A DNA stretch of 56,884 nt from NCBI GenBank assembly GCA_964419335.1, contig CAYQOX010000007.1, positions 65,189-122,072 of the forward strand. Reading direction: 5' to 3'. How positions within the stretch are numbered: position 1 is the first letter of the stretch; every line of letters begins with the position of its first letter. Shown here one piece after another: positions 1,477 to 38,699 of the stretch. Below the pieces are notes generated by a model, which was not told where the DNA came from, made no database searches, and was given only the letters and a program-made list of their open reading frames with translations. A program made the position numbers and the translations under genes. The DNA is from an uncultured bacterium (lineage in GTDB: Bacteria > Hinthialibacterota > Hinthialibacteria > Hinthialibacterales > Hinthialibacteraceae).

Positions 1477-1479
1477 TCC

Positions 1480-2139: not shown

Positions 2140-3232
2140 GATTGTCCTCGAGCAGTTCTTCTTCTATTGGTTGGTTAAATTGATCAAAGGTATCGGTGGC
2201 AGAAGGGGTTGGAATGTTGAAATAATCGGTGGAGTCGAGAATTTCTTGAGCCATGGTGGAGGAATAGGGAATCCCAGAGGTTTGTAGTCCCAATTTGGTG
2301 CTATTCATGATAAGAGGCAGGCCGTCTTCGGGTCCGCCTACAACAATAACCCTGGCGTTGGGTGAAGTCGCCAGGTCGAGAGAAGCCTCGATCCCTTTCC
2401 ATTGTAAAAGTTGTTTGGAGATCCCTTCGGCGACAATGTCTTGAAAATCACGTATTCCCGAGGCCATGATCACTTTGCGTTTTGCTTCTTCTTCTGCTTG
2501 CATTAGGAGATATTGGTATTTTTCGGCGTTGTGCATCTCACGGAGTTTTTCCTCGATGGCTTGCTCAACCAAAGAAGGGAGGGTGATTTTGGTGATAAGA
2601 AGATCATCAAGTTCGATATATCTTTCGGTTAATTGCAATAAAGCCTCGCTCAGGGCGGCATCCAGCATGCCATATTCTGCTCGATAGAGTTCTTCAGGGT
2701 GGTATTTGCCCACGACGAAGCGCAAGGAGGCCTCGATTTCAGGAATGATGACAGTTTCGACATAATCTGGCCCAATATATTTATGTAAATAGTTTAAGTC
2801 GGTACTCTCTCGGCTGGGGTGAAAACGAATAGAAACAGTAAATTTAATATGTAAGCCGTCTTGGGCAAGGATGTTAAATTCTTCCTGCACTTGTTGTTGA
2901 CGGATATTGTAAATGTGGATTCGATCGAAGGGCCAAATGATGTACAGGCCTTCGCCGAGGGGAGGTTTGTCGACCACGGTCCCGCCAAAGCGCCGGTAAT
3001 AGACTCCCCGCTCTCCGGAATGGATGGTGATAACGATGTTATTCCAAAACAAGATGATGAGGAATACAAGGATAAGGCCGAGGATTTCAAACTTCAATCG
3101 GTGGCGTTTGAACCATTGTTTCAAGCGAGTAGAGCATTTGTGTTGAGACGGAGAGGCTTGATTCTCTGGCTGGGATTGTATATAAAAGAACGATTGATCA
3201 TTTGTTTTCATAATGGTTGTATTATATTTCAT
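2129..3232 (-). CDS. SPFH/band-7 (prohibitin/HflC-like) membrane protein, paralog 1
   Basis: ATG at 3230-3232 (cat on +). N-terminal TM helix, then a band-7 core (ITIHSGERGVYYRRFGG, EAEYGMLDAAL, AEKYQYLLMQAEEEAKRKVIMASGIRDFQDIV). Highly similar to 40195..41277. Immediately downstream of ABC exporter 1 on the same strand. Confidence 0.8.
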   Translation of the reverse strand: MKYNTTIMKTNDQSFFYIQSQPENQASPSQHKCSTRLKQWFKRHRLKFEILGLILVFLIILFWNNIVITIHSGERGVYYRRFGGTVVDKPPLGEGLYIIWPFDRIHIYNIRQQQVQEEFNILAQDGLHIKFTVSIRFHPSRESTDLNYLHKYIGPDYVETVIIPEIEASLRFVVGKYHPEELYRAEYGMLDAALSEALLQLTERYIELDDLLITKITLPSLVEQAIEEKLREMHNAEKYQYLLMQAEEEAKRKVIMASGIRDFQDIVAEGISKQLLQWKGIEASLDLATSPNARVIVVGGPEDGLPLIMNSTKLGLQTSGIPYSSTMAQEILDSTDYFNIPTPSATDTFDQFNQPIEEELLEDNLNQ

Positions 3233-3243
3233 TTCCAGGCTTG

Positions 3244-5290: not shown

Positions 5291-5380
5291 TAGAGAGATG
5301 TACTATTGATTTGAACTATCTCATAACTACTGGTGCATCATCAATGATATTTTTTAAGCGAGTTACTACGTAAATTGGAT

Positions 5381-8197: not shown

Positions 8198-11100
8198 ATG
8201 AATCAATCCAATGAAAGCCAAGTGCTAAAAAAAACCTATATTGCTTTAAAGAAAACCCAAAAGCGGGTGGAAGAATTAGAAAACGCCCAGCGTGAACCTT
8301 TAGCGATTATTGGCATGGCTTGCCGATTTCCCGGGGGAGGAAATACACCTGAAGCGTTTTGGGATTTGCTGAAGAATGGTGTCGATGCGAGTAGTGAGAT
8401 TCCTGAAGAACGGTGGAAATCACAAACTTTTTATCATCCTGAACCCGATACTCCTGGAACCACCCATGCTCATCGTGCGAACTTTCTAACATTACCAATC
8501 GATGAATTCGACGCTCCTTTTTTCAATATATCCGCCAAAGAAGCCCGGGCCATGGATCCCCAGCAGCGTTTGCTCATGGAAGTCTCTTGGGAAGCCATGG
8601 AAGATGCAGGATTAAATGTAAGTCGCTTAAATGGTAGTCGGACAGGGGTGTATGTGGGGATTTCCAGCGATGATTATTCGCTAGCGCATCGACATTCGGG
8701 AGATTATGGGCAAGTAGATGCCTATTCATTGACAGGAACGTGTTTTGCGCCCGCGGCGGGACGGCTTTCGTATTCCTTTGGTTTTGAGGGACCGTCTATG
8801 GCGGTGGATACAGCTTGTTCTTCCTCGCTGGTGGCATTGCATTTGGCTTGTCGGGGATTGAGAAATCATGAGATGGATATGGCTTTGGTCGGGGGAGTGA
8901 ATTTAATCTTAACTCCATCTTTCCATATTTGTTCAACCAAGTTAGGCACGATTTCACCTGATGGACGGTGTAAAACTTTTGATGCTTCGGCCGATGGCTA
9001 TGGACGCGGTGAAGGCTGCGGAATGGTCGTGATTAAGCGGTTATCAGATGCGGTTCGCGATGAGGATCCTATCCATGCGGTGATTCGTGGTACGGAGGTC
9101 AATCAGGATGGGAAGAGCAATGGCTTAACTGCCCCTAATGGACGTTCCCAAGAAAAAGTGATTCGTAGTGCGTTGGCGAATGCGGGATTATCTCCAGCGG
9201 ATATTAATTATGTTGAAGCCCATGGTACTGGAACCTCGCTGGGGGATCCTATTGAGGTGGAAGCGATTGCTCGCGTGATGGAAGAATCGCACACCCGAGA
9301 GAATCCCGTGTGGATCAGCTCCGTAAAAATCAACATTGGCCATTTGGAGGCCGCAGCGGGGATTTCTGGCTTATTTAAAGTTATTTTATCTATGCGGCAT
9401 GATACCTTGCCTCCACATTTTCACTTCAAAAATCCCAATCCTTATGTTGACTGGGAGCAATTGCCCGTAGAAGTCCCGACACAGCTAACTTCATGGCAAA
9501 GGAATGACAAACCTCGACGTGCTGGGATCAGCTCTTTTGGTTTTAGCGGGACCAATGCCCATGTCGTTGTGGAAGAGCCCCCATCGGTGAAAGAGGAGCA
9601 GGAAGGTCAGCAGCCGATAGAAATTCAAAGCAGGAAAGATCGGTCGTCTTGTCTCTTGCCTTTGTCGGCTCGTAGTGAAAATGCATTAAAAGCATTAGCA
9701 AAGAACTATGTCCGTTTTATAGAGCACAGTGATGTTTCGATTGCCGATATATGTCATACCGCAGGTGTGGGTCGTACCCATTTCAATTACCGTATTTCCG
9801 TAATTGGTAAAGATGCGGATGAAATCAAAACGAACTTGGAGGCGTATACCCAGGGGAAAAAGGCGGCAGGACTCAAGCAAAATGATGGGGTTTTATCTAA
9901 ACCCAAGGTGGTTTTTCTGTTCACTGGTCAGGGCTCACAATATGTAGGGATGGGTAAGGAACTTTATGATACATCGCCGGTCTTTCGAGATGCTATGGAT
10001 GCCTGCGATGCAGGTTTACGTCCCTATCTAAATGAGTCGCTTCTAGAGTTACTCTATAGCGAAGGCGCAGATGATACGCGGTTGACCCAAACTCAGTTTA
10101 CCCAGCCAGCGATCTTTGCCATAGAATATGCGTTAGCACAGCTTTGGATGTCGTGGGGGGTGATACCCGATAAGGTTGCGGGACATAGCATTGGAGAATA
10201 TGCAGCGGCGTGTATCGCGGGAGTTATGAGCTTAGAGGATACACTTCGCCTTGTTGCCGCAAGGGGAAGATTGATGCAATCACTTCCGGGTAATGGAACC
10301 ATGGCGGCAGTGTTTGCCCGGGAAGAAGACTTGCTCGCTCAGTTGGATTTCGAGGGGAAAGAAGTTTCCATCGCTGCTGTGAATGCGCCGGGTTCGGTTG
10401 TCCTTTCAGGAGAACGTGGACAAGTCCAGGAGATGATTGAGGAGTTAAAGAAGCGAGGAATCTCTGCGAAGCAACTTAATGTTTCCCATGCGTTTCATTC
10501 TCCATTAATGGACCCTATTTTGGATGAATTTAGACAGATTGCCAATGAGATCACTTATCATGATCCTGAAATTTCCATCATTTCGACCGTAAGGGGTGGA
10601 GAGATTCAGGATGGGGATTTCACCAGCGCCGAATATTGGACAGAACAAATTCGGAAGCCGGTACGTTTTTGTGAAGCGGGTGAGAGGTTAAGTTTGGATA
10701 GTTCTTCTCTCCTGCTTGAGATCGGGGCAATGCCGATTTTGGCAGGACTCATGAAGCGGATTGTGACAGAGGACACTTGTACCATTTTATATTCAATGAA
10801 AAAAGGCGAAGAGGAATGGAAAAGTTTGCTTCACGCGTTGGGTGAAGTTTATATTCATGGAATTGAAGTTGGTTGGCGGGCCTATGATCAAGCTTATAAA
10901 CGCAAGCGCGTATCCTTACCTTTTTATGCTTTTCAACGCAAAAACTTCTATATGAATCCGGTTCGAGAACAAGGCCCCGCCGGTGGCGGACACGCTTTCA
11001 CAGAGGATAGCCATCCCTATTTAGGTGAACGTATTGATAGTCCCATTATGGGAGAAGATTCTACCTTATTTCAGGCTTTGTTTAGCGAGCCGTGGCCTGA

Positions 11101-14100
11101 CTTTTTACGTCAGCACAAGATTTTTGGGAAGATTATTTCTCCCGGGGCGGCGCATTTGTGTATGGCTTTATCGGCTTGGCGTAATGAAAAGGGGAACGAG
11201 CCTTGTGTTTTAGAAAATGTTGATTTGACGGCTCCTTTGGTGGTCGATGAGGAAGAAAAGCGTAAGGTTCAATTAATTTTGGAAAATAAGCTGGATTCAA
11301 AAGCGGAGTTTCGTCTGTTGAGTAAAGAGGCGGGACAACGAAAAGGAACGTGGATCCTACATTGTAATGGAAATGTTCACAATCTTTTGGAAGACGAAAC
11401 AAACTCTGAGCCGCTGCCGCTGGAAGAAATCCGAACCCGTTGTGATGAGGATATGACGGCGGAAGAATTGTATCAATATATTGAAAATGTGGGGTATAGC
11501 GTCGGCCCGTTATTCCAGTGCGTGCGCGAGATTCATAAGGGAGATAACGAGGCTTTGTGTATTGTGAGGAACGTGCATGAGGTAGATGAAATGGCGGTAT
11601 ATCCCGGATTGGTCGACTCGTTTTTGCAGACAGTTCTGCCTGCGTTGATGAAAAATGATCGCGGTATGCTGGATGGCGAGCATGTCCTGATTCCCCTGCA
11701 TTTTAAAAAGATCCAATTTCAAAAAAGTTTAGATGGAGATTTATATTGTCATACCCAGGTTGCATTGATGGAGGATGCTATCAAAGCCCAAATTCGGATT
11801 GCAGATCCGAGTGGAAACGTGGTTTTGGAAATTGAAGATTTCCTTCTTAAATATACTGATCGCAATACCCTCTACCGCGATTTGCGGGAAGACTTTCATA
11901 AACTCATTTATCTTACCCAGTGGGACGAGATACGCCCTCGAGAGAAAGAACATGTTTCCAGTACGGGACTCTCTTACTCTCTCGTTTTGGATGACGGTCA
12001 TGGTTTTGGACAGACTCTTGTGAATACGATTCGAACCCAAGGTGGGAATTGTATTCATGTTCTTCTTGGGGAGACTTTTGAGCAGAAAGCCAAGGATACT
12101 TATGTAGTCAATGCGAACCAGGAAGATGATCTTTCACAAATTTTCCATGAAGCCATTAAACATAAAGGGGATACACCCATTCACCTTTTGTGTTGCCTGG
12201 GTATCAAAGATGGTCATATTCATGAAATCGATGCCAATGGACTAGAATTCGCAGAGCAAATAATTATTCAGCCTTTGCTATCGGTTTTCCATCAATTGCA
12301 TTCTCAAAATGTAACTGATCATTTTAAACTTTGGTGTTTCACCGAAAAAAGTCAGCGCACTCATCTGGAGGATGGTACGATTCAACTCGCAACTTCTCCC
12401 CTATGGGGATTAGGGCGAACCATGGAAATGGAATTCCCTGAAATGTGGGGGGGGATGATCGATGTCGATGCCAACCTACCGGCAACAGCGTTTGCAACAG
12501 TGCTGGCTCATATCGAAGAACCAAATCACGAAAATCAGATTGCCGTGCGCCAGAATGGGCGGATATATGGTGCGCGCTTAATCCCGATGAAAAAGAGACG
12601 CGAGGAGTCTTCTCGGGAAGAATTGCCGCTGCCCTCCTGTTCGAAAGATGAAGGTATTTATTTGGATACAGGAAATAAAGGGACGCTCGATGAATTGAAC
12701 TTCAAAAAACGCTCACGACGCGAACCGCAAGCGAATGAAGTCGAAGTACACATTTATGCCTCAGGTCTGAATTTTCGTGATGTGCTTAATGTCTTGGGGC
12801 AGTACCCCGGTGACGCGGGATTTATGGGCTATGAGGCGGCAGGAATTGTGACCCGTACCGGATCTCTCGTGAGTGAATTTCGAGAGGGAGACGGGGTGAT
12901 TGTCATGGATGCACCGGGATGCATTTGTGATTACATGACCTGCGATTTGAATTGCGTGATGAAGATCCCCGCGGGGATGAATTTCTATGAAGCCGTTACA
13001 TTACCCGCTACCTTTTTGACGGCTTATTATGCCTTAGAAAAATTGGGACATGTGCGAGAAGGCGATAAAGTGTTGATCCATGCCGGAGCCGGCGGAGTGG
13101 GGATGGCCGCGGTCCAATTATGCCTGGATGCAGGGGCTGAAGTCTTTGCTACGGCAGGTTCGGATAAAAAACGCGCCTTATTGAAAGATATGGGAGTACA
13201 TCATGTGATGAATTCCCGCACACTTGAATTCGCGGATGAGATCCACACGATTACTCAAGGCCAGGGTGTCGATGTGGTGTTGAATTCCTTATCGGGCGAT
13301 TTTATTGAAAAGAGTTTTGAAGTCTTGGCCAAGCATGGACGCTTTTTAGAGATGGGAAAGATCGAGATTTGGAACGAGTCTCAGGTTCGTGCGAAAGATC
13401 CGAGTTATTCGTATTATCCCTTCGATCTCTCTACGGTCTCGCGTGAGAATCCCGGCTATGTCAAAGAATTGTTCCACGAGCTCTTGCCAAGATTTGAAAG
13501 CCAGTCTTTGACTGCCTTGCCCTATACTGTTTTTCCTATGCGACGTGCGAAAGAGGCGTTTCGTTACATGGCTCAAGCCAAGCATATAGGGAAAATTGTG
13601 CTTTCACGTTTGGAGGATATTCGTCGGGATGAAAGAGAAACCTTGGGAGTTGTTCGTTCGGATGCCACTTATTTAATTACCGGTGGTTTGGGGGCGTTAG
13701 GTTTGCAAGCAGCCCGGTGGTTGGCTGAAGAAGGAGCTCAACATATCGTGTTGACTAGTCGCAGTGATCCTAAGCCAGAGGTGGAAGCAATATTGCAATC
13801 GTTGCAGCAACAAGGCATTGAGATTGAGGTTATGCGGGGGGATGTGGCACACGAAGAGGATGTGCAACGTATAATCCAACGCATTCGGACTGAGATGCCC
13901 CCGCTGAAAGGAATTCTTCATGCCGCGGGAGTCTTAGATGATGGGATGTTAGGAGAACAAACTTGGGAACGTTTTAAAAAAGTAATGGCACCGAAGGTAC
14001 GTGGCGCTTGGAATCTGCATCGGGCTACCCGTAATGTGTTGTTGGACTTTTTCGTGATGTATTCTTCGGTGGCCTCGTTGTTAGGGAACTTAGGACAAAG

Positions 14101-14830
14101 TAACTATGCGGCTGCTAATGCCTTTATGGATTCATTAGCACACTATCGTCGTCAGCAAGGTTTACCTGCATTGAGCGTTAATTGGGGGCCCTGGGCTGAA
14201 GCCGGAATGGCAGCGGGTGTATCGAAAGAACGTTTCTCCAGCCAAGGCATACAAAGTCTTAATCCTGAACGCGGAATGCATATTTTGAATACTTTGCTTA
14301 CTGAAGAGATTACCCAACCGTGCGTGATTGATGTGGATTGGGCAAAGTATGCCGAGAGCCGGGCTCTGGATGGGCGGCACGGATTTTTCTCAATGTTATT
14401 AGGAGAATCCAAAGTCAAGAAAAAGACAGATAAATTCGAATCAAAAGAACAGAATCTAATTCTTGATGAGCTCAAGCAATGTTCCGATGGACAGCGGAAG
14501 AATACACTTGTTGCTTTTCTTAAGCAAACGGCGCTGGACGTGCTTGGTTATAGTGAGACGGAGCAAATATCAACCGATCAACCGTTGGTTGATCAAGGCT
14601 TTGATTCCCTTATGAGCGTGGAAATGCGCAATCGTTTAGGTAAAAGTTTGAATCAATCACTACCGGCCTCACTTTTGTTTGACTATCCCACTTTGGAAAA
14701 GATCGCCGAATATTTGCTGGAAGAAGTATTAAAAGTAGAGGAAGAAACCGGTACGAGTGAGGTACAAACGAAAGCAGGTCGCGCTTCCGATGATTTGCTG
14801 AGCGAGATCGATGAATTGGTAAAATCCTAA
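8198..14830 (+). CDS. Type I PKS module: KS-AT(malonyl)-DH-ER-KR-ACP (fully reducing)
   Basis: ATG at 8198 preceded by GAGGTGG. N-terminal coiled-coil docking. KS: DTACSSS, EAHGTGT, NIGHLE. AT: GQGSQ, GHSIGE (about 10181), HAFH (malonyl-type). DH: HPYLGERIDSP (HxxxGxxxxP) and DSFLQ. ER: LIHAGAGGVGMAAVQ (about 13072..13110). KR: TGGLGALG, LDD motif, S..Y..N triad (SNYAAANA about 14101). ACP: GFDSL (14597..14611). Confidence 0.9.
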   Translation: MNQSNESQVLKKTYIALKKTQKRVEELENAQREPLAIIGMACRFPGGGNTPEAFWDLLKNGVDASSEIPEERWKSQTFYHPEPDTPGTTHAHRANFLTLPIDEFDAPFFNISAKEARAMDPQQRLLMEVSWEAMEDAGLNVSRLNGSRTGVYVGISSDDYSLAHRHSGDYGQVDAYSLTGTCFAPAAGRLSYSFGFEGPSMAVDTACSSSLVALHLACRGLRNHEMDMALVGGVNLILTPSFHICSTKLGTISPDGRCKTFDASADGYGRGEGCGMVVIKRLSDAVRDEDPIHAVIRGTEVNQDGKSNGLTAPNGRSQEKVIRSALANAGLSPADINYVEAHGTGTSLGDPIEVEAIARVMEESHTRENPVWISSVKINIGHLEAAAGISGLFKVILSMRHDTLPPHFHFKNPNPYVDWEQLPVEVPTQLTSWQRNDKPRRAGISSFGFSGTNAHVVVEEPPSVKEEQEGQQPIEIQSRKDRSSCLLPLSARSENALKALAKNYVRFIEHSDVSIADICHTAGVGRTHFNYRISVIGKDADEIKTNLEAYTQGKKAAGLKQNDGVLSKPKVVFLFTGQGSQYVGMGKELYDTSPVFRDAMDACDAGLRPYLNESLLELLYSEGADDTRLTQTQFTQPAIFAIEYALAQLWMSWGVIPDKVAGHSIGEYAAACIAGVMSLEDTLRLVAARGRLMQSLPGNGTMAAVFAREEDLLAQLDFEGKEVSIAAVNAPGSVVLSGERGQVQEMIEELKKRGISAKQLNVSHAFHSPLMDPILDEFRQIANEITYHDPEISIISTVRGGEIQDGDFTSAEYWTEQIRKPVRFCEAGERLSLDSSSLLLEIGAMPILAGLMKRIVTEDTCTILYSMKKGEEEWKSLLHALGEVYIHGIEVGWRAYDQAYKRKRVSLPFYAFQRKNFYMNPVREQGPAGGGHAFTEDSHPYLGERIDSPIMGEDSTLFQALFSEPWPDFLRQHKIFGKIISPGAAHLCMALSAWRNEKGNEPCVLENVDLTAPLVVDEEEKRKVQLILENKLDSKAEFRLLSKEAGQRKGTWILHCNGNVHNLLEDETNSEPLPLEEIRTRCDEDMTAEELYQYIENVGYSVGPLFQCVREIHKGDNEALCIVRNVHEVDEMAVYPGLVDSFLQTVLPALMKNDRGMLDGEHVLIPLHFKKIQFQKSLDGDLYCHTQVALMEDAIKAQIRIADPSGNVVLEIEDFLLKYTDRNTLYRDLREDFHKLIYLTQWDEIRPREKEHVSSTGLSYSLVLDDGHGFGQTLVNTIRTQGGNCIHVLLGETFEQKAKDTYVVNANQEDDLSQIFHEAIKHKGDTPIHLLCCLGIKDGHIHEIDANGLEFAEQIIIQPLLSVFHQLHSQNVTDHFKLWCFTEKSQRTHLEDGTIQLATSPLWGLGRTMEMEFPEMWGGMIDVDANLPATAFATVLAHIEEPNHENQIAVRQNGRIYGARLIPMKKRREESSREELPLPSCSKDEGIYLDTGNKGTLDELNFKKRSRREPQANEVEVHIYASGLNFRDVLNVLGQYPGDAGFMGYEAAGIVTRTGSLVSEFREGDGVIVMDAPGCICDYMTCDLNCVMKIPAGMNFYEAVTLPATFLTAYYALEKLGHVREGDKVLIHAGAGGVGMAAVQLCLDAGAEVFATAGSDKKRALLKDMGVHHVMNSRTLEFADEIHTITQGQGVDVVLNSLSGDFIEKSFEVLAKHGRFLEMGKIEIWNESQVRAKDPSYSYYPFDLSTVSRENPGYVKELFHELLPRFESQSLTALPYTVFPMRRAKEAFRYMAQAKHIGKIVLSRLEDIRRDERETLGVVRSDATYLITGGLGALGLQAARWLAEEGAQHIVLTSRSDPKPEVEAILQSLQQQGIEIEVMRGDVAHEEDVQRIIQRIRTEMPPLKGILHAAGVLDDGMLGEQTWERFKKVMAPKVRGAWNLHRATRNVLLDFFVMYSSVASLLGNLGQSNYAAANAFMDSLAHYRRQQGLPALSVNWGPWAEAGMAAGVSKERFSSQGIQSLNPERGMHILNTLLTEEITQPCVIDVDWAKYAESRALDGRHGFFSMLLGESKVKKKTDKFESKEQNLILDELKQCSDGQRKNTLVAFLKQTALDVLGYSETEQISTDQPLVDQGFDSLMSVEMRNRLGKSLNQSLPASLLFDYPTLEKIAEYLLEEVLKVEEETGTSEVQTKAGRASDDLLSEIDELVKS

Positions 14831-14881: not shown

Positions 14882-17800
14882 ATGGATTCGATCACAGAAC
14901 AAAAATATAAAGAAACTCTCCGAAAAGCCTCTGAACGAATCAAAGCCCTGACGGTGGAAAATGAGTCGTTAAAGAATCCTGAACCCATTGCTGTGATTGG
15001 TATGGGCTGCCGTTTTCCTGGCGAGGCGAATACACCGGCCTCTTTTTGGGAACTCTTGCGTAATGGGGTGGATGCGGTCGATGAAATTCCCGCGGATCGA
15101 TGGGATGTGGAGGCCTATTATGATCCTGATCGAGAAGCCTTGGGAAAAATGTATACCAAACAGGGGGCGTTTTTATCCGGTGTCGATTTGTTCGATTCTT
15201 CATTTTTCGGCATAACACCTAAAGAAGCAGAATCTATGGATCCCCAGCAACGAATTCTGATGGAAGTGTCGTGGGAAGCCTTTGAGAATGCCAGTTTGAA
15301 TCCCGCCCATTTCCGTGGAAGTCGAAGCGGGGTTTTTGTTGGGCTTTCGAATTATGACTATATTCAGAGCCATATTCATTCAGGAGATGTAGAACGCATA
15401 ACTCCCTATTCAGGAAGCGGAGTCATGTTCAGCACAACGGCGGGGCGGCTTTCATATTTTTACGATTTTCAAGGTCCCTGCTTGACCGTCGACACCGCCT
15501 GTTCATCTTCGCTGGTAACGCTGCATCTGGCCGTTAAAAGTTTGCAAAAGGGAGAGTGTGATTTGGCTTTAACAGGTGGAGTCAACCTCCTCTTGTCGCT
15601 CGATAGTTATATCGCTATGTGCAAGGTTAACGCACTTTCTCCAGATGGGCGATGCCGGACGTTTGATAATGAAGCCCAAGGCTACGGACGAGGTGAAGGC
15701 TGTGGTGTTATTCTGCTTAAACGATTGTCAGAATCTCTTCAAGATGGGGATCGAATCCTCTCTGTTATTCGCGGGACGGCGGTGAATCATGATGGACGCA
15801 GCAACGGACTCACCGCTCCGAATGGACCCTCACAGCAACGGGTGATTCAACAAGCTTTAACCGATGCGCGCTTGAAGCCCGAGGAGGTGGATTATATTGA
15901 AGCGCATGGCACGGGCACCATTTTGGGGGATCCGATAGAAGTTCATGCCTTGGATACGGTTTATGGAAAAGGACGGGATCAAGAAAATCCTTTATTCATT
16001 GGGTCGGTAAAAACCAATATTGGCCATACAGAGGCTTCTGCGGGAATCGCAGGTATTATTAAAGTGATTCTCGCTTTGCAAAATAAAATGATACCTCCCA
16101 GTTTGCATTTTCATTCTCCCAGCCAGCACATAACCTGGGATCAAATTCCCATTCGGGTTGCTTCGCAATTACAGGAGTGGGAGGTGAAAGACAAAAAGCG
16201 GATTGCGGGTGTCAGTTCGTTTGGGTTGAGCGGAACCAATTCGCATATTCTTTTAGAAGAAGCGCCTGTGAATCAAGTTGAAGTTGATCCACAGGATCCA
16301 CGCGATTCTTACACCTTAAAATTATCTGTCCATACAGAAGCAGCGTTGAAACAATCGGCACTCCAATTTTCTGATTTTCTTAAGAATCATCCAGAAGTTA
16401 ATTTGCGGGATTTGTGTTATACCGCGAATACAGGGCGATGTGATTTCGCCCGGCGAATTGCGATCGTTGCCCACACCCGCGAAGAATTCTCCAAGGCTCT
16501 TTCGGCCTATTCTCAAGAACAAAAATCTCCCCACGTTTTTCTTTCGAGATATCAACTTAAAAATAAAGAGGTTGTGTTTCTTTTTACGGGGCAAGGGGCT
16601 ACTTACAAGGGGATGGGAAAAGTCTTGTATGAACATCATCCCGTTTTCCGAGAATCTTTAGAACATTGTGAAGAGATCTTATCACGCTATTGGAATGAGT
16701 CTCTCCTTGATTTGCTTTACCAGGGAGAAGAAACGCGCTTGCTCGAAACCGAAATTACGCAGCCCGTTTTGGTTGCCTTTGAGTATGCCTTAGCCCAGTT
16801 GTGGAAACATTGGGGAATCCAGCCCCGTGTAGTTGTCGGCCATAGCATTGGTGAATATGCCGCAGCAATCACTGCAGGCGTGTTTTCGTTAGAAACGGGA
16901 TTGAAACTGGCGGTGGAGCGTGGACGTCTAATGCAAGCGCTCCCTTCACGAGGCGCGATGGCGGCGGTGTTCGCTTCAGAGGAACATATGACTCCTTTGC
17001 TAGAGGCCTTTACGGGCAAAATTCATATAGCCGCCTGCAATGCACCGGAACGTATGACCTTGTCCGGGGATGCGGATGCTCTGGAAGCATTCCTAGAGGA
17101 ATTGCGAGAAAAGAACATCGAGTTTCGCCGCTTACGTGTCTCGCATGCGTTTCATTCGCATCATATGCAGCCCATGCTTGAGGCGTTTGAACAGAGTGTA
17201 AAACAAGAAAAATGTAACCCTCCCAATCTCCCTTTTTATTCTTCGGTGACGGGGAAACGAGTTGATTCAAAGGAACTTTTGTCCAGCGCTTATTGGACAC
17301 GAGAAATCGCTCAGCCGGTGTTGTTTAAACAAGCAGTGCAAAGCCTTTATGACGATGGGATGAAAATTTTCTTAGAAGTGGGACCGACTGAAACCTTAGC
17401 CCTTTTTGCTCGGCAAACGTGCAGTGAAGGTTTGTTTCTTTCTTCTTTAAAAAAAGGAGTGAGTGATTGGGCGAGACTTCAAACGAGCGCAGCCCAACTC
17501 TACGTTCATGGAATTAATGTAGACTGGCACACTTTTGAGTCTCCTTTTTCTGGTAAACGGATCGATCTTCCAACTTATCCCTTTCAACGAAACCGTTACT
17601 GGTTGGATTTGTGTCCTATACGAAATCAAAAAGGAACGATTGCAAGCCAATCTACGGAACATACACAAGATACCACTCGAAACCTGACTTTACAGAATGA
17701 AACCTCAACTACCAATCAGCAGGTAAAAAAGATGGATATACGAGAAACGATATTAAATGAACTTACCCTTCAATTGGCAGAAGTGGGTGGTTTTCAACAA

Positions 17801-20800
17801 GAAGATATTTCGCCCGAGATTCGATTAATTGAGATGGGATTGGATTCATTAATGCTGGTCAAGATTGGACAAGAGGTTGAACGGCGCTATCAAGTCGAAC
17901 TCACCATGAGCCAGTTCTTTCATGAAATCCAAACCTTGCATGACTTGGTTGATTATTTAATGGAGCATGGAGATCTTCGTGCCGTCAAAGGGCAAGAATC
18001 CGCAGTTGAAGAAACCAAGCCCAATAAAGAAACACGCTCTTCTTTGCCCTCGATTGCTCATGAATCCATCGAGCCTACATCAAACTCCACGGTGCAATTG
18101 ATGCGAGAACAATTGCGTTTGATGGAGCAGGTGAGCAAACAAAGCCAAGAGTCGGTAGAAAAATTAATTCAAGAACAATTGTCGGTTTTACAGAATAGGG
18201 CGAGGGAAGATGGCAAAAACCTTCCTGCTACACCTTCTGCGTCTACGACTCATACTCAACCTGCTCAACCCAAGCCGGCTGAAAAGAAAGAACCGCGCGT
18301 TGGAGGAGCAGAACGCTTTCGTTCGCTTCATTTACAGCGTGGGGGAATGATGAACGAAAAGCAAAAAAAATTCATCGATGAACTCATTCAACGACACATT
18401 CAACGCACCTCAACCTCCAAATCCATGACCCAGGACTCACGGCCGGTCTTGGCGGATTGGAAGCATACCCTTTCCTTTTGGGGGCAGTTGAAGGAAGCGA
18501 AGTATCCCATCATTTCATCGCGTTCCGAAGGTGCACGATTTTGGGATGTGGATGGCAATGAATATATTGATGTGGCCATGGGCATGGGGGTCCATTTTCT
18601 TGGGCATACACCACCTGTGGTTCGCCAGTCCTTGGAGCGTCAATTAAGCGAAGGTATGGAAATTGGCACCCAGTGTGATTTGACCGGTGAGGTGGCGCGT
18701 TTGATTTGTGAGCTGACCGGCAATGAGCGGGTGACCTTTTGTAATACCGGATCGGAAGCAGTGATGGTATGTTTGCGGTTGGCGCGCGCGGTCAGTCAGC
18801 GGGATACGGTAGTTCTTTTCCAAGAGTCATACCATGGAATATTTGACGGCGTGTTGGCAATGGAAGCCGATGGTAAAAAAATCCCTATCGGTCTAGGAAC
18901 CCCGCAAGGGATGATTGAAAATGTTGTCGTTTTGAAATATGGCGATCCTGAATCCTTGGAAAAAATTGAAGAACTCGGAGATGAACTGGCGGCGGTATTG
19001 GTCGAACCGGTACAAAGCCGGAATCCCGATTTGCAGCCACAGAACTTTTTGAAAAAACTACGGCGTATTACACAACAAAACAATGTAGCGTTAATTTTCG
19101 ATGAAATGATCACGGGTTTTCGCATACATCCTGGCGGGGCTCAGCATTGGTTCGGCGTAAATGCGGATCTCTGCGCTTATGGGAAAATCGTGGGCGGGGG
19201 GCTGCCGATTGGGGTGGTCGCAGGCAAATCAAAGTATATGGATTACATCGACGGCGGTGTGTGGAACTATGGGGATGAATCCGGCCCCAGCTCAGCCATG
19301 ATCTTTTTTGGTGGGACCTTTGGACGTAATCCAATGACGATGGCTTCGGCTCATGCTGCCTTGCTTGAATTAAAACGGCAAGGGGCGGAGTTGCAGCAAA
19401 CCGTCAATCGCCGGACCAGGTCTTTTTGTGATCGTTTAAATTATTGGCTTGAAAAGGAACGGGTACCCATGCGGGTAAAATCATTCGCTTCGCAATGGCG
19501 TTTGGTTCCTTTGGGTGACAACGATCGACAGCCCTTAGAGATGGAATTGCTCTATTTGCAATTGATGGTGAAAGGCGTGTATACCTGGGAAAGACGTATC
19601 TGCTTTTTCTCGGCGGCACATGGGGAGGAAGAGATTGATTATATTTTAAAAAGTATAAAAGAGAGCATTCATGAACTGCGTGATGCGGGATTGGCTTTTT
19701 CGATGGAGGGCGATATCCCAAAACGTTTCGTGGCTCCTACCTCGATTCAGCGGCGATTGTATGCGTTGTGCCAACGTCCCGGGGGTGAAAAGCCTTACCA
19801 TCAGCCTTATGCCTATTGGGTGAATGGGGTGCTCGATATTGATCGTTTGGAAGAATGCATGCAGGAAATTATCCTACGGCATGAGGCGCTGCGCTGCAGC
19901 TTCCATGAATTGGAAGGCGACTTAGTTCTACGGATTGAGGACGAACCCCGCTTTTTAATTGAGCGGTATGAAGCGCGTGACGAAGAGGTTGAGGAGATTC
20001 TTACTCGACTCATTCGCCCTTTTGATTTACATACGGCACCATTATTGCGCATGGCTGTAATTCAAATTTCTCCCGAGCGCTATTTACTCTTTAATGATGC
20101 GCACCATATCGTGATTGATGGATTATCCTTTAATACCATCGTGCGTGATTTGATGGATCTGTACGAAGGACGAACCCCACAACCGGTAAAGCATACGTTT
20201 CTTGAATGTGCAGCATTGTTAGAGAAGCGATGCGATGAGAAACGGTTGGCCTTGTTGGATGCATTTTGGGAAAAAGAATTGCATGGACCGCTGCCGGTGT
20301 TGGAATTACCCACGGATTACCCGCGACCGAAAGAGCCGGATTATGAAGGCGAGCATTTGATCTCCACTCTCGATGAGACCAGCCTGCGAAGGATCAAAGA
20401 TTATACCAAGAAGCAAGGGATTTCATTATACATCTTCCTGGCCGCAGCTTATACGACACTCTTACATCGATTAACAGGGCAGGAAGATATCCTTGTCGGA
20501 ACCCCGGTTTCGGGGCGGGATATTCCAGAGGCACAGGATACGGTCGGCATGTTTGTGAATACCAGCGTGCTTCGCAATTATCCTAAAGCCGATACACCTT
20601 TTGAACAATTTCTCCATGAAGTAAAAGAAACATGCGCGTGTGTTTATGATCATCAGGATTATTCCTTTGAGCGTATGGCTAATCGCTATAACAACGGCAG
20701 GCCGCAAAATCGCAATGCTATTTTTGATACCACATTAGCGTATGAGAATGCAAATGATCGAATCTTCACGATTCGAGATTTAACCTTTACCCAGTATCCG

Positions 20801-23800
20801 CTGCATGATAAGTCATCGATGTTTGATTTTCGGCTTGAGGTTATTGAGGAACAAGACTCTTTATCGCTGGATTTTCAATATTCCACCCAACTTTTTTCTC
20901 GTGAATCGATTGAGAGATGGGTGAAGTATTTCCATCAACTTCTCGATGAGATACTACAAGATCCTTCTACTCCATTGGGTGTAATTGATATTTTACCTCT
21001 TAGCGAGAAAGAATGGTTGAAGCAATGTAACCAAACCCAAGCGGATTATCCCCAAAAAACCATTATCGAATTATTTGAAGAGCAAGTGGCCAAAACCCCC
21101 GAGCGAATAGCGCTTGTTTTTCAAGATACTACGCTTACCTACCGTGAACTTGACCGGTGGGTAAATCGAATAGCGAACGCGCTACAGAAGAAGCACTCAA
21201 TTTCTTCCGGTGATCGGGTGGGTGTATTTCTTGAGCGATCCGAATGGGTCATCTGTGCCTTTCTTGCGATCTTGAAGACAGGCGGAGTCTATGTGCCCTT
21301 GGATAGCGAGTATCCACAGGAACGTTTACGTTTTATGATCGAAGATAGTGGATGTTCTGTAATTCTAACCCAAAAGAAGCTTCTTCCTCTACTGCCGGCG
21401 GAAGTACAGCATCTAGCCGAAGAGATAGACGAACTTGATACATACGAAGAAGCAACAATGGATACCTCGATTTCTATTGATAATCCCGCGTATGTAATTT
21501 ATACCTCTGGATCGACAGGGCAGCCAAAAGGGTGTGTTATCACTCATCGCAACGTAGTGCGTTTGGTGAAAAACAAGCGGCATGATTTTGATTTTCATGA
21601 AGAGGATGTTTGGATTTGTACGCATTCATTCTGCTTTGATTTTTCTGTATGGGAAATGTATGGCGCACTATTATATGGCGGCCGGGTTGTCATAGCCAGT
21701 AAGGAAACCACCCGCGATCCACAACGGCTTCTAAACTTACTTCGAGCGCATCGGGTAACTGTGTTGAATCAAACTCCTGCTTCATTTTTGAATTTGATAG
21801 AAGTCGAGAAAAAGCAATCCAAACATTGTTTGGATGAGCATCTGCGCTATGTCATCTTTGGCGGTGATCGTTTGGAGCCGGCGGCGCTAAAACCGTGGGT
21901 TGATCTTTATTCCCTTTCCACAATTGCTTTGATCAATATGTACGGCATTACCGAAACTACGGTGCATGTGACGTTTTATCCCATCAATGAAAGCGATATC
22001 CAATCGACTCGGGGACAAAGCCCTATCGGCCGCCCGATTCCCGAAACCCAGGTTTATGTATGCAATGCGATGATGCAAGAACAGCCAATCGGTGTGGTCG
22101 GAGAAATGTATGTTGGCGGTTCAGGTGTTTGCCAGGGATATTTAAACAGAACGGAATTAACCCAAGAACGTTTTATCCCTTCACCATGGGGTGAAGGAAG
22201 GCTTTATCGCACGGGGGACCTAGCACATCGCCTGGCTGATGGAAACTTGGTGTATCTGGGACGCAATGATCAGCAAGTGCAAATTCGGGGGCACCGGGTT
22301 GAACTGGATGAGATTCATTTCCACCTGCTGCAACATCCGTGTGTTCAAAAAGCATTGATAACAGCGCATACCAACGCCCAGGAACAGCTTGAATTGGTGG
22401 CTTATTACATAACCGAGGGCGTCGTCACGATCCAAGAATTGCGAGATCATCTTGCAGCGCGCATCCCGATGTATATGATTCCATCTTCTTTCGTAACCTT
22501 AGATGAATTCCCTCTGACTCCAAATGGGAAAATGGATCGCCGCGCCTTGCCTGATCCGCAATCGGCCAAAGTAACAAGTGAGGAAAACTTCGTTTACCCC
22601 CGAGATGAGATCGAGAAAACCATTGCCCAGGTATGGAGTGAGATTTTGGGATGCGAACGCGTGGGGATCGAGGATAATTATTTTGTCTTGGGCGGTGATT
22701 CTATCAAAGCCATCCAGATTGTCAGCCGTCTGTTCCAGGCGGGGATCGAGGTGGAAGTTCGTCATATCTTGGAAGCGCAAACCGTGGCGGGTTTGCGTGA
22801 GCATGTAAAAGATTCACGTTCCTATGAAAAAGCAGAAAGCCGCTTTGGGCTGGAACAAGAAGAACTTGATAATGTGCTTCGCTATCTAGGTGTTGAAGCA
22901 AAGCAAGTGGAAAATATTTTACCGCTTTCAACCATGCAAGAGGGCATCTTATATCACTCTATCGCGGATGAAAATTCCAATGCGTATTTCGAACAATTTA
23001 CATACCGCATACGTGGAGAACTTCATAAGCAATCTTTTGAGCAAAGCTGGAATGAGTTAGCCAAACGCCATAGCGCTTTACGTACTTCCATTGTGTATGA
23101 TCAATCCCGTGAGCCAATCCAAGTGGTTTTGCGGGATCGTCCCGTACCCTTTTATTATGAGGATTGGCGTTCATTCTCTCGTGAAGAACAGAATCAAAAA
23201 CTAGAAGAATATCAACAACGGGATCGGGAACATTCTTTTGATTTGTCTCATGAGCCGTTGATGCGAATTTCGGTTTTACGCATGGAAGAGAATGTTTATG
23301 AGGTGATTTGGAGCCATCATCATATTATTTTGGATGGATGGTCAATGGGGATTTTAGTTGAAGAGTTTATGAAGATCTATGATTCTCTTCGCGCGAATAA
23401 ACCAATCCAATTGCCTTGTGCACCTTCTTATTCTTCTTATATCGAATGGCTAATAGCCAAAGACCGGGAGGAATCCCTTTCCTTTTGGGAACAATTTCTA
23501 TGTCACTATGAAAAACCAGTATCAATACCCAAAACCAAGAACGAAAATGCCATTCAAGATTATAAGCTAAATGAGCATGTGTTCTACTTGGATGAATCCA
23601 CCACGCAGAACTTACAACAAAAAGCCCGTGAACAACACGTAACTTTGAATACAATGATGCAATCGATCTGGGCTTATATCTTGGGAACCTACAATGACTC
23701 TCGGGATGTGGTCTTTGGCGTTGTGGTTTCGGGACGTCCACCGCAGCTTGAGGGTGTGGAAAAGATGGTAGGATTGTTTTTGCAGTCGATCCCAATGCGG

Positions 23801-26800
23801 GTCCAATGGGATGCTTCCACAAAGTTTACTCAATTGGTGCAGCAAGTGCAGCGGGTTTTCTCCGAATGTGAGTCTCACCATGTTTGTTCCATGGGAGAAA
23901 TCTTATCACTCACCCCGCATAAACAAAATCTTCTCGATCATCTTTTTGTGTTTGAAAATTATCCCATGCTGGAGGCTGATTGGCGAGAAACGCTCGGCTT
24001 TAGCGTGGAGGACATTCGCAGCTATGAGCAGATGAACTATCACTTTGGGATCGTGATTCATCCTGGAAATGGACTGGAGGTGAAGTTTAGCTACAACGAA
24101 AACGTGCATACGACTGAACAGATGCGAAAGATTGAGAAGGACATTCGTTCTGTTATACAAACGATGTTGAGGGACGAGTCAGTTTCTCTCAATGAAATAA
24201 TGATCGGAGATGATTCGCGTAAACACTCAGTGCAAGTGCTAGAAGATTCCCTCTCATGGTGGAAGCGTGATCTAACCGTCCTTGATCTATTCGAAGAGCA
24301 AGTTATGAACACTCCTGATCATGTAGCGGTGGAAGGTGCATCGCGGACCCTAACGTATGTTCAATTGAACCAAGAAGCGAATGCGTTGGCGCATGCTCTA
24401 CTCCAGGCAAACGTAGGCCGCGATCGCATGGTTGGAATCTACATGGGAAATGGTATTGATTATGTGGTTAGTATGATCGCCGTACAAAAAGCCGGGGGAG
24501 TGTTTGTTCCCATTGATCCAGAGACTCCCCGAAAACGTTTGGAAACGATACTTCAAAAAATCGAAGCCACAGTAGTAATCACTCAAGCGAGCTATGTTCA
24601 ATCCTTAAAAGAATCTCTCCATGATTTTTATTCCATTGTCCAACCGGAGCATTTTTTCTTTATCGATGATTCAAACACATGGCGGCATCTATCCATGAAC
24701 AACGGTGAATCAGATTCACCGATTCCCATGATCACAGAGCCTCTACGGGATCGCCCCATGGTAACAGATAGTATGTACGTCGTTTTTACTTCGGGTTCGA
24801 CAGGCGAACCCAAGGCGATACTGGGTGGTCATAATGGCCTATCTCACTTTATCCAATGGGAGTCGTATGAATTTGATGTGGATGAGACAGTACGCACATC
24901 GAATTTGGCACCGGTGATGTTTGATGTGAGTTTACGTGATCTTTTCCTGCCATTGGTTAATGGGGGGAGCGTCATCATTCCGGCTCCCGAGGTTCGTACG
25001 GATTTATCGGCTCTGGCGCAATGGATGGGCGAGAAACAGATTACATTGGTTCACATTGTTCCTAGCATGTTTCGCTTATTGCTCAACGAAGTGGAAGCCT
25101 TATCGCTTTCACCAGAGGTGTTTCAAACCTTGCGCACTGTGATTCTCGCGGGAGAAGCGTTGTATGAAAAGGATATTCAACGCGGGCGGGCGTTATTGGG
25201 TGAGCACATCGAATACGTGAACCTCTATGGACCTTCTGAAACAACGCTGGCTAAGGTTTTCTATCGTATTCCCAAATCGATTGAAGGATCCAATCGTGGG
25301 ATCGTACTGGGCAAAGCGATGGATGGAACCAAGGCTTTTATTGTAAAAAATAATCGTGCCGCAACCGTAGGCGAAATTGGTGAAATTTACATTCAAACCC
25401 CATTCGATTGTAAAGGTTATTATGGTGACCCTGAACGTACAGCAGAGAGTTTTGTTCCCCATCCATTCAAAAATGAATCAAGTGAACAAGTTTACAGGAC
25501 TGGTGATTTGGGACGCTTGACGGCGAATGGCGATATTGAATTTGTTGGGCGTCTTGATCGCCAAGTCAAAGTAAATGGGGTACGGGTAGAGTTGGCTGAA
25601 ATTGACCGGGTACTTGGTCTTGATCCCAACATTGATCAATCCACGGTCATGATCTATTCACGTGCGGATGGAGAAAATGTACTAGTGGCCTATTACACCG
25701 AAAAATATCCTGTGAATGAAGATGCATTACGCTCTATGATGGAGCAGTATCTTCCCGCCGCGATGATTCCCAATTACTTTGTACCGTTGGATGAATTTCC
25801 CTATAACCTCAATGGTAAAATTGATCGTAAGGCTTTACCCAAACCGGAAGATTTAGTCTATGACCGGGTCGATTATGAACCGCCGCGTGATGAAATCGAA
25901 AAGCGCTTAGTTGATATATGGAAGCAGGTATTGGGCGTGAAGAAGATCGGGGTCAACTCGCCCTTCTTGCATGTAGGAGGGAATTCTCTCAAAGCGATCC
26001 GAGTCATCTCTTGGATAAATCGCGAGTTTACGTCGGATCTCAGAATACGTTCGTTCTTTGAATTGGCAACGATCCGCAAGATCGCAGAAGCTATTCGCGT
26101 TAAGAAAGAAGTGGCTGCCGATACAATCGAACCACTTCCCAAGCAGCCAGATTATCCCTTATCCCATGCCCAGCGGCGTTTATGGATATTACACCAGCTG
26201 GAGATCGACGCGCGAGCCTATAATTTACCTTCGGTCTTGCTGTTAGAAGGGTTGTTTGATGTAAACTCATTTTGTCAGGCGATGCAAATCGTGGTGGATC
26301 GCCATGAGTCCTTACGCACGACCTTTCATCAAATTAATAATGAACCCCGCCAAGTTATCCATGATCACATTGCTTTTGATGTTGAGATCGTGGACCTTCG
26401 TGATGAAACAGATGGGTTGAAGACGGCTAAAGAAAGTGTAAGAAAAGATGCGCACCGCTCTTTTGATTTGACTCAAGGTCCATTGATACGCGTGCTTCTT
26501 TATCAAATCGCGGATGAACGCTATGTCTTATTCACAAATTTTCATCACATTGTTTTTGATGGAACTTCGATCTCCGTTTTGATTCGTGATGTCTTGCATC
26601 TCTATCAAGCCTTCGTCAAGAAAGAAGAGCCGAATCTCCCCTCGCTTCGGATTCAGTACAAGGATTTTGCCGCTTGGCAAAACGCGCATCTCGCACAAGA
26701 TACGATGAAAGAGCATCGAGAATACTGGCTTAAGAAATTGGAGGGAGAACTTCCGGTGCTTAATCTTCAAACCGATTTCCCCAGGCCACCGGTGCAAACT

Positions 26801-29800
26801 TTCAACGGAGAAACGCTTTCTTTTGATTTAGATCCCAACTTGTTGACATGGTTTCGCCAATATTGTTTTGAGCATGGCGGCAGTTTATATATGGGGGCTG
26901 TCGCCTTAATAAAAACTCTATTATATCGTTATACCGGCCAGCGTGATCTGCTTGTAGGCAGTGTGATTGCTGGACGTGATCTTGATGAACTGGATGATCA
27001 AGTCGGTTTTTATGTGAATACGCTTGTGCTTCGTGATGAAATAAATCCAGAAAGTCATTTTGCTCAAATTTTTGAATCAATCAAACAAACCATCACAGAA
27101 GCGTTTGAACATCGTGAATATCCCTTTGATCAAATAGTGGATGACCTCGGCTTGGATCGAGACATGAGTCGTCCTCCGTTAACAGAAATCATGGTGGTTT
27201 ATCAAAATATGGAACGACATGATTTCGCGATTGAAGGAGTCGAAATTAAAGAACTGGATATAGATTTTCATTGCAGCAAATTCCCATTGTCGTTCGTGTT
27301 TGAAGAGAAACCTAATGGCACCTTGTCATTGAAAGTCGAATATAATACAGATCTATTTCGGCGAAAACGGATTGAACACATGGTTGGCCATCTTCATGAA
27401 TTGTTGCACAGCATCAAGGCTAACTTCAAACACCCAGTTGGTTCATTGAATATCCTTCCCGACCATGAGCAACGATTGTTGCATCAATGCAATGATACGG
27501 CTTATGATTACCCCGAGGATCAAACGATTGTTGATTTGATCGAGCATCAAGTGGATCAAAATCCTCATGCCAAGGCAGTCGTGTGTGAAAAGGTTGAATG
27601 GACTTACCGAGAACTCAATGCGAAAGCCAATTTGTTAGCCCATCGACTAATTCATACATATAAACTTCAAGCCGGCCATCATGTTGGGGTGTTAATTAGC
27701 CGAAGCGAATGGTTGCCAGTTGCTTTTCTGGGTATCCAAAAAGCGGGTGGCGTTTATGTTCCCATTGATCCCACCTACCCGCATGAACGAGTTTCGTTTA
27801 TGCTACAGGATTGTGGCGCGACGCTGCTTTTAACTGATCGCGAATTCGATCAAACTTTAAAGCAAAAAGCAAAAACGGTTTTGGATATACGGCACTTAAA
27901 TGGCAAGGACCCTAGTAATCCACGAGTGGCGATAACGAGCCGTGATGTGGCTTATGTTATCTATACCTCGGGCTCGACCGGACAGCCTAAAGGGGTATTA
28001 ATCGAACATCAAAGCGCGGTGAACCTTTCTACATATCATCGCCATAGTCTCAAAGTAAATACGAAGGATCGGGTACTGCAATTCGCGCCTGCTTCTTTTG
28101 ATGCCTCGGTGTGGGAAATGATCATGGCGCTGGTACAAGGTGCATGCTTGGTTGTTACTTCGCGTGAATGTGTCTATGATCATAAACAGTTTGAACGATA
28201 CCTTCAAAAAAACCATGTAAGCGTAGCCACCTTGCCGCCATCCTATGTTGCCGAGTTGCCGAAAGAAAGTTTGACCTCACTGCGATTGTTGGTTACCGCC
28301 GGAGAAACTGCGCGGGTGGAAGATGCACTTTCATTAAGTCAATCCATCGAATACATCAACGCATATGGTCCAACAGAATCCACCATATGTGCGACCAGCC
28401 ATCGTGTTGATCCACAAGGAAAATATCAAGATTCAATCCCCATAGGCAAACCAATTCAGAATATGGAAGTCCTTATTTTGGATGAACAAGGACAGCTTAT
28501 GCCAATGGGCTATCCTGGAGAACTCTATTTGGGGGGCGTTGGTGTAGCACGTGGCTATTTACATCGGGAGGCCTTGAATAAAGAAAAATTTGTACAACAC
28601 CCATATCGGCCAGAAGAACGGGTCTATCGTTCGGGGGATATGGGATTTTGGAACTGGAATAAGGAAATCGAATTCCTGGGAAGGATGGATGATCAGGTCA
28701 AGATCCGTGGAAATCGCATTGAACTTGGTGAAGTTGAACATTGTATAAACCAGTCTCCAGAGGTGAATGAAGTGGTTGTAACTACTAGGCAAGAGCAGGG
28801 AAGAGATTTCCTAGCTGCCTATTTCACGTCGGAAAAAGAGATTGTTCCTTCTTCTGTGCGTGAACATGTTGAAAAGCATTTACCCGAATACATGATTCCT
28901 ACTTACTGGGTGCCAATGGATGCAATTCCCACACTTCCCAATGGAAAGGTGGATCGAAAGCAACTGCCAAACCCTGTTGATGCCTCGATAAATTCAGCAC
29001 GTGAGTACATCGCTCCACGTACAGAAAAGGAAACTTGTTTGTGTCATATATGGTCGCGTGTGTTGGGGCTTCATCGGGTTGGAATTTATGATCGGTTTTT
29101 TGAACTCGGGGGTGATTCCATTAAGGCAATTCAGATCGTATCGCATGTGCAAGAAGAGGGGTATAACCTCACGGTCAAAGAAATTTTCCGTTTTCCTACC
29201 ATAGAAACTTTAGCCGCACGACTGAAGAAAAATAAAAACTTACTTTCTACGGATCTATCTAAGGAACCGATTGCTTTTACGCCTATCCAGCATTGGTTTT
29301 TTGAAGAACATCAAGATGATATTCATCATTTTAATCAATCGATCTTACTAAAACCCCAGCATACTCTTTGTATAGATGCGTTGCGACGCGCTCTGAAGGA
29401 ATTGGTGAATTATCATGATAGTTTGCGTCTTATGTTCCCTTTTGAAAACGGTGAACGTCAACAGCGTTATCGGGAAAAGGATTCGCACTTCGACCTCCTT
29501 GTGAAAGATCTCTCGAACTCGGTACATTTTGAAGAGTCTTTGAAGGAACATGCGCAAACAATCCAGCAAAGCATGGATTTACAACGTGGTCCCTTATTTA
29601 AAGCGGTCTTGTATCGACAAAACGAAGAAGAACGACTTTGGCTTGTGGCTCATCATTTCATGGTCGACGGAATAACATGGCGAATCTTGATTGAGGATTT
29701 AACCTTGGCCTATCAACAATCACTCGAAGGAAAGCAAATAACTTTACCTCCTAAGAGTGCTTCTTATCAACAATGGTCACAGGCATTACAGCACTACAGC

Positions 29801-38654: not shown

Positions 38655-38699
38655 AGGTGTGAATCCTTGTGTTTTTTTCTTGGTGATAGAATCCAATAA

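Follow-up and report, generated by a model that had tools for sequence, protein, structure and literature searches.

The 56,884-nt stretch of DNA analysed here, which we call the window, comes from an uncultured bacterium of the Hinthialibacterota (contig CAYQOX010000007.1, positions 65,189 to 122,072) and holds four co-directional megasynthase genes. These are, by open reading frame (ORF), ORF1 (5375..8188), ORF2 (8198..14830), ORF3 (14882..30649) and ORF4 (30624..35069). ORF3 encodes a hybrid of a polyketide synthase (PKS) and a nonribosomal peptide synthetase (NRPS), and embedded where its polyketide part gives way to its peptide part is an aminotransferase (AMT) domain. We assign a probability of roughly 0.88 to the reading that this AMT is an intact, ordinary member of the MycA type, whose predicted reaction replaces the beta-keto group of an acyl chain on its carrier by an amino group.

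The embedded AMT domain of ORF3

An earlier note on this DNA had proposed that a class-III aminotransferase dependent on pyridoxal phosphate (PLP) lies in cis in this protein, after a ketosynthase (KS), an acyltransferase (AT) and an acyl carrier protein (ACP) and before the first condensation (C) domain. The Pfam domain map and a profile match to PF00202 bear this out. The region flagged, nt 18290-19700, corresponds to aa 1137-1607 of ORF3, a single uninterrupted ORF of 5255 aa on the + strand, and its overlap with other reading frames is limited to short antisense ORFs of 61-109 aa. Using alignment to the crystal construct of the MycA AMT together with an AlphaFold model, we set the boundaries of this fold-type I, class-III domain at aa 1159-1604 (18356..19693, + strand), or about 446 aa. 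The end of the span first proposed, which was put at about 470 aa, was thus right, but its start took in about 22 residues of the preceding linker. The Aminotran_3 profile PF00202 matches aa 1207-1533 (nt 18500-19480) with an E-value of 1.1e-52 and a score of 179.5 bits, against a Pfam gathering cutoff of 30.5.

Among proteins of solved structure, the best sequence matches are those of the MycA AMT (6KFM and 6KFR; E 5.6e-129 over query residues 23-467), with the MycA ACP-AMT fusion 6KFU also among them; the glutamate-1-semialdehyde aminomutases (GSAMs) rank behind, at about 1e-51 (best 1.1e-51). Structural comparison gives the same order. The AlphaFold2 model, which covers aa 950-1612, has a mean pLDDT of 80.6 and mostly exceeds 90 within the AMT, and Foldseek placed 6kfu, the ACP-AMT fusion, at the top of its ranking, followed by 6kfm_A. 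On the latter the model superposes with a TMt of 0.93 and an rmsd of 2.3 Å at 45% sequence identity.

The catalytic residues expected of such an enzyme are in place. The Schiff-base lysine, Lys1435 (nt 19184-19186), sits in the motif YGKIVGGGLP, which the earlier note had already called intact, and aligns opposite the lysine of ‘YGKIIGGGQP’ in MycA and of ‘GKVIGGGLP’ in GSAM. Asp1407 in IFDEM (nt 19100-19102), the partner of the pyridine nitrogen, aligns opposite the FDE aspartate of the MycA and GSAM structures. Both residues are invariant in an alignment of the window sequence with 30 database homologues (31 sequences in all), and the window AMT matches all 56 of the invariant columns. Compared with GSAM it also has an extra segment of about 12 residues, visible as 8+4 gap columns in the GSAM sequences (3k28, 6w80) opposite ‘GVWNYGDE...SSAM’. 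Milano et al. (2013) described an insertion of this size as a hallmark that sets Aminotran_3 domains embedded in assembly lines apart from GSAM (PMC3870968).

These residues also bear on whether the domain could be a catalytically silent, structural or dimerising insert, in which case the chain would retain its beta-keto group. There is a precedent, since a few embedded Aminotran_3 domains have Thr or Val in place of the lysine (Milano et al., PMC3870968). In the window AMT, however, Lys1435, Asp1407 and every residue that is invariant in the alignment are present, the sequence is 45% identical to an active MycA domain and the confidence of the fold prediction is high, and we consider a silent AMT very unlikely.

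Module context and the role of the beta-amine

The domain order of ORF3, mapped with Pfam and with a phmmer comparison of the sequence against itself, is KS-AT-ACP-linker-AMT-C-A-T-C-A-T-C-A-T-E, in which A, T and E stand for adenylation, thiolation (carrier) and epimerisation domains. The KS (aa 34-411, 14981..16114, + strand; PF00109/PF02801) retains an intact Cys-His-His triad in the motifs DTACSSS, HGTGT and NIGH. The AT (aa 565-878, 16574..17515, + strand; PF00698, E 1.5e-60) carries GHSIG and HAFH, the latter a motif associated with malonyl specificity. The ACP (aa 956-1030, 17747..17971, + strand) matches PF00550 at aa 965-1026, is modelled with a pLDDT of 86-96, and bears its phosphopantetheine on Ser989 of a GLDSL motif (nt 17846-17848). 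It is the sole carrier between the KS and the first condensation domain, C1 (aa 1617-2045, 19730..21016, + strand; PF00668, E 9e-99; HHIVIDG), which is fused about 12 residues after the AMT with no second carrier between. The adenylation core A1 (aa 2065-2421, 21074..22144, + strand; PF00501) and the carrier T1 (about aa 2575-2645, 22604..22816, + strand; PF00550 stretches, GGDSI motif at aa 2604) follow.

In the domain content of the AMT module we found no ketoreductase (KR), dehydratase (DH) or enoylreductase (ER), and the gap between AT and ACP, at just 78 aa, leaves no space for a KR. Without these reductive domains the beta-keto group should persist. A competent KS, a malonyl-type AT and an ACP with no KR thus make the beta-ketoacyl-S-ACP the expected substrate of the AMT, and its conversion to a beta-amino thioester, which the earlier note had also put forward, would be the expected chemistry of such a module, as in MycA (PMC3870968). 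The acyl chain would come from ORF2 (+ strand), which Pfam resolves into a fully reducing PKS module, KS-AT-DH-ER-KR-ACP, placed to feed the AMT module.

A scan limited to one genome per species recovered at least 589 relatives of the AMT, spread over cyanobacteria, Pseudomonadota, Bacteroidota, actinomycetes, myxobacteria, Acidobacteriota, Chloroflexota, Gemmatimonadota and others. The closest among the matches listed is from an uncultured metagenome-assembled genome (MAG) and is 67% identical (L001); the others reach at most 54%. Its locus has the same domain order as the window, a KS-AT-DH-ER-KR module and then KS-AT-AMT-C-A-C-A-C-A. We counted architectures in 80 of the related loci, of which 68 had enough upstream and 68 enough downstream DNA. 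A KS and AT without a KR lie directly upstream of the AMT in 59/68 loci, and a C domain lies downstream in 61/68, abutting the AMT in 52. In the remaining 9 the C domain begins about 2.6 kb after the start of the AMT, a spacing that would fit a monooxygenase inserted as in modules of the PuwE type (PMC4219810).

Three observations weigh against our reading. NCBIfam holds no dedicated AMT model and returns HemL-family matches only, all of them sub-threshold, and for this reason the assignment rests on homology to MycA. At the start of the assembly line, ORF1 (+ strand), the first PKS protein, is mapped by Pfam as a KS, a degenerate AT-like region and an ACP, and the window contains no acyl ligase, fatty acyl-AMP ligase (FAAL) or loading AT. 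The KS of ORF1 has an intact Cys/His/His triad; the AT-like region, of about 300 aa, has AQPST in place of GHSxG and gave no AT match in the phmmer domain map. At the other end, Pfam scans found no thioesterase (TE) domain in the window to account for chain release.

The HemL matches could be taken as a sign of other PLP chemistry, be it a GSAM-like 2,1-aminomutase reaction, a decarboxylation or a Claisen condensation, given that HemL models are the top NCBIfam matches and that GSAMs, at about 1e-51, are the nearest stand-alone relatives. Yet both HemL models score under their curated cutoffs by a wide distance (NF000818, 253.3 vs 398; TIGR00713, 248.1 vs 527.3), from which we conclude that the domain is GSAM-like and not HemL, and the MycA AMT is closer than any GSAM, with an E-value about 80 orders of magnitude lower. 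Embedded PLP domains of the Claisen type belong to PF00155 and those of the decarboxylase type to Pyridoxal_deC, not to PF00202 (PMC3870968). The setting, a beta-ketoacyl-ACP with no KR and a C domain next, is that of a transaminase, and it recurs in most of the 80 loci. Taken together, these points make any such alternative chemistry extremely improbable.

For a transaminating, MycA-type AMT we propose the following course. With malonate from the cis AT, the ORF3 KS would lengthen the acyl chain received from ORF2, giving a beta-ketoacyl-S-ACP on Ser989. PLP on Lys1435 would take an amino group from a soluble donor, by analogy with MycA probably glutamine, to form pyridoxamine phosphate (PMP), and the AMT would then transaminate the ACP-tethered beta-ketone to a beta-aminoacyl-S-ACP, as its homology suggests. 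The MycA AMT moves an amine in this way, from Gln via PLP to an ACP-bound beta-ketothioester (PMC3870968). At C1 the beta-aminoacyl thioester would next act as the donor, and the residue carried by T1, probably Thr, would accept it through its alpha-amine. We infer this step from colinearity and from precedents in iturin and puwainaphycin biosynthesis: as the ACP is the only carrier upstream of C1, and A1-T1 lie downstream, the beta-aminoacyl-S-ACP should be the donor of the first condensation.

The earlier note had assigned the opposite role, making the beta-amino group the acceptor in the first NRPS condensation. The amine is indeed produced immediately upstream of C1, and a free amine is a chemically competent nucleophile. 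An acceptor, however, would need a peptidyl or aminoacyl donor on a carrier before the ACP, where there is none; the ACP itself occupies the donor position and A1-T1 the acceptor position. The characterised homologues speak in the same direction. In iturin and mycosubtilin biosynthesis a C domain transfers the beta-amino fatty acyl group onto a downstream Asn thioester (PMC11751314), and the beta-amine reacts only at the end, in ring closure (PMC11751314, PMC4219810). We therefore set the acceptor assignment aside as having very little chance of being correct. The distinction matters for structure prediction: as a donor thioester, the chain keeps its amine through the first condensation, so that the amine is available for ring closure or stays as a free basic group.

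After the donor step at C1, three further modules would extend the chain. The codes of their A domains, like that of A1, are provisional, having been read by alignment to a GrsA fragment, and were interpreted with Stachelhaus codes. The code of A1, DFWNIGMVH, is one that we take to specify Thr. That of A2 (aa 3137-3680, 24290-25921), DVRHIALL-K, matches none of the codes known to us, and the second residue of the peptide is left unpredicted. A3 has the code DAWTVAAICK, presumably for Phe; behind it, at the C terminus of ORF3, stands a canonical E domain that keeps EGHGRE and HHxxxDG; A4, in ORF4, has DASTIAAVC, which we take to be Tyr-like. The predicted product of the cluster would accordingly consist of a 3-amino acyl start, then probably Thr, an unpredicted residue, D-Phe and a Tyr-like residue. 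Its beta-amine would remain free through elongation and might later serve as the ring-closing nucleophile, as in the iturins, or stay unreacted at the N terminus, the arrangement found in linear peptides of the microginin kind.

Linker helix, chain end and neighbouring genes

The linker between ACP and AMT (aa 1027-1137, nt 17960-18290) had been described in the earlier note as a coiled coil. A linker of that extent exists; it is mostly disordered and of low complexity, with one predicted helix, and its coiled-coil nature was not demonstrated. AlphaFold places, in order, the ACP (aa 950-1036), a disordered stretch, a single 43-residue helix (aa 1068-1110, residues 119-161 of the model; 18083..18211, + strand; pLDDT about 70-76), a disordered segment rich in Pro, Ala, Thr and Lys (aa 1112-1154) and the AMT. 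The segments that flank the helix have a pLDDT below 50. In a heptad test on the helix, 7 of 12 a/d positions were hydrophobic, a count equalled in 215 of 2000 shuffles and hence not significant, and the model is of a monomer only.

The helix does carry a Q-rich motif, LMREQLRLMEQ...QEQLSVL. Across 77 ACP-AMT linkers from related loci, a loose pattern of this motif (h-h-x-x-Q-L-x-x-M-x-Q...QQLxxL) was matched in 47, at 60-100 residues ahead of the AMT core, compared with a mean of 1.0 and a maximum of 5 in composition-preserving shuffles, and several of the non-matching linkers show near-matches by eye. Since 47/77 linkers have the motif where about one would by chance, we regard the helix as a conserved element of this type of AMT module. 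It may serve AMT modules specifically in docking or dimerisation. We found no description of an ACP-AMT linker helix in the literature searched.

At the chain end, ORF4 (+ strand) encodes the last NRPS module, C-A-T, followed by a terminal domain derived from an E domain (33801-35066; TIGR01720, 85.5 bits). This terminal domain has MTHHGRD for EGHGRE, with a change of Glu to Thr, and HHLITDA for HHxxxDG. Changes of this kind are kept in the orthologues of two other clusters, L081 (5380-9861) and L083 (5513-9937). In all three terminal domains EGHGRE has become T-x-HGR-D/E, with loss of the catalytic Glu, and the histidine of HHxxxD is kept; within each of the three clusters, the internal E domains retain canonical motifs. 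The ORF4 terminal domain may be a non-epimerising release domain.

Downstream lies ORF5 (35145..36728, + strand), a probably secreted serine hydrolase of the S12/PBP fold that resembles alkaline D-peptidase (PF00144, with SxxK and YxN motifs and a signal peptide) and has a C-terminal extension of about 130 aa. Typical signal peptides open both ORF5, where a ribosome-binding site precedes it, and its two orthologues (L081, 10001-11569; L083, 10001-11590). Among solved structures the closest to ORF5 is the alkaline D-peptidase of Bacillus cereus (4Y7P, E 3e-35), an endopeptidase directed at D-Phe (PMC4570186); similarity to SurE is much lower (6KSU, E 1.9e-9). The order of NRPS end, PF00144 hydrolase and divergent AsnB-type gene is kept in GCA_964612675.1 and GCA_014728855.1, and the TE-less gene-cluster family as a whole is conserved in at least three uncultured bacteria.

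Two proposals for release of the chain can be considered. In the first, the terminal E-like domain of this TE-less family would release the chain by macrolactamisation onto the AMT-derived beta-amine, in the manner of fungal terminal condensation (CT) domains, and the secreted D-peptidase-like hydrolase would then act on the D-Phe product, in processing or self-resistance. We offer it as a speculation that is, on balance, rather unlikely to hold in full. In the second, ORF5 would itself be a PBP-fold offloading cyclase of the SurE type that closes the ring on the beta-amine. A PF00144 gene adjoins the NRPS end in all three clusters, and the assembly line of the window, which has no TE, stops at a T and an E-like domain. 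The signal peptides of ORF5 and its orthologues, however, indicate that these proteins are probably exported, away from the carrier-bound thioester, and the SurE similarity (1.9e-9) is weak against that to alkaline D-peptidase (3e-35). On these two grounds we rejected a cytoplasmic cyclase role, which seems quite improbable; going by its sequence, ORF5 is more likely a D-stereospecific secreted peptidase of processing or self-resistance.

The gene of the divergent AsnB-type glutamine amidotransferase (36786-38696, - strand) is conserved beside the cluster in two other genomes and may serve in Asn supply or product amidation. Translation probably begins downstream of the TTG listed as its start, at an internal MCGITG that supplies the N-terminal Cys nucleophile usual in such enzymes; with this start the protein has a normal Cys glutaminase domain, and a role like that of beta-lactam synthetases was dropped. 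On either side of the cluster, at 811-4890 and 40195-43766, lie two paralogous gene sets, each with an ABC ATPase/permease (548 and 542 aa), an SPFH/Band7 protein (367 and 360 aa) and a DUF697 protein; the L081 cluster also adjoins ABC, ParA-like, DUF697, PPTase and Band7 genes. For one flanking gene, the closest relatives that bear a name are from MAGs of Candidatus Omnitrophota and Candidatus Hinthialibacter (37-44% identity). Farther away, a gene at 49543-52803 (- strand) encodes a 1086-aa fusion of a membrane domain resembling MFS transporters and ATP:ADP antiporters, HEAT repeats and a cyclic-nucleotide-binding domain. Nearly all homologues of this fusion are from uncultured candidate phyla (Omnitrophota, Hinthialibacterota and Cloacimonadota MAGs).

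Comparison with known systems

The AMT adds no new mechanism. Such domains have been characterised since MycA, their structures are solved, and they occur in hundreds of clusters across phyla; the practical value of the domain is predictive, in that it indicates the start unit of the product. The unusual parts of this locus, namely the missing TE, the conserved diverged E-like domain at the chain end and the conserved D-peptidase-like hydrolase, lie outside the AMT, and the logic of chain release is the part that might repay further work.

With GSAM and HemL the AMT shares its Pfam family, the lysine motif GK(I/V)(I/V)GGGLP, the FDE aspartate motif and the fold (TM about 0.85). GSAM, in contrast, is a stand-alone enzyme only about 26-28% identical to the AMT, which is part of a megasynthase and has, besides the insertion described above, an N-terminal extension. 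The MycA AMT (6KFM, 6KFR, 6KFU), like those of ItuA and BamA, has the same fold, catalytic residues and insertion relative to GSAM and is likewise preceded by an acyl carrier and followed by the first C domain, and the same reaction is predicted.

The likeness to the iturin-type enzymes does not extend to the rest of the assembly line. In those systems an acyl ligase loads a fatty acid, a trans-acting acyltransferase brings malonate and a TE ends the line (PMC11751314). The acyl ligase, trans malonyl transferase, seven modules and TE of the iturin-family synthetases are all missing from the window, where no AMP-binding domain precedes the KS domains, the ATs act in cis, the A domains number four and no PF00975 TE was found. 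The chain instead comes from upstream cis-AT PKS modules and is extended by four amino-acid modules. ItuA is also described with C-PCP-C (PCP, peptidyl carrier protein) after its AMT (PMC11751314), whereas the window has a single C domain there.

Closer in organisation are PuwE of puwainaphycin biosynthesis and the cyanobacterial and other modules of the form KS-AT-ACP-AMT-(Ox)-C-A-T (Ox, monooxygenase), which have the same domain order and a cis AT, and whose AMTs are 45-54% identical to that of ORF3. The ORF2 module in turn partly resembles PuwB, which has AT, DH, methyltransferase (MT), ER and KR domains (PMC4219810). The window differs from the puwainaphycin type in having no FAAL starter enzyme. 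It also does without the PuwE monooxygenase, its C domain starting about 1.4 kb after the AMT start as opposed to about 2.6 kb in the nine loci with wider spacing, and no 2-hydroxylation is therefore expected.

The KS-AT-ACP-AMT-C-A architecture is widespread and already known. Proteins of the form KS-AT-CP-PLP-C-A-CP, with CP for carrier protein, were catalogued in 2013 by Milano et al. (PMC3870968), and one of these, Q2T5Z2 of Burkholderia thailandensis, has the same order of domains as the AMT module of ORF3.

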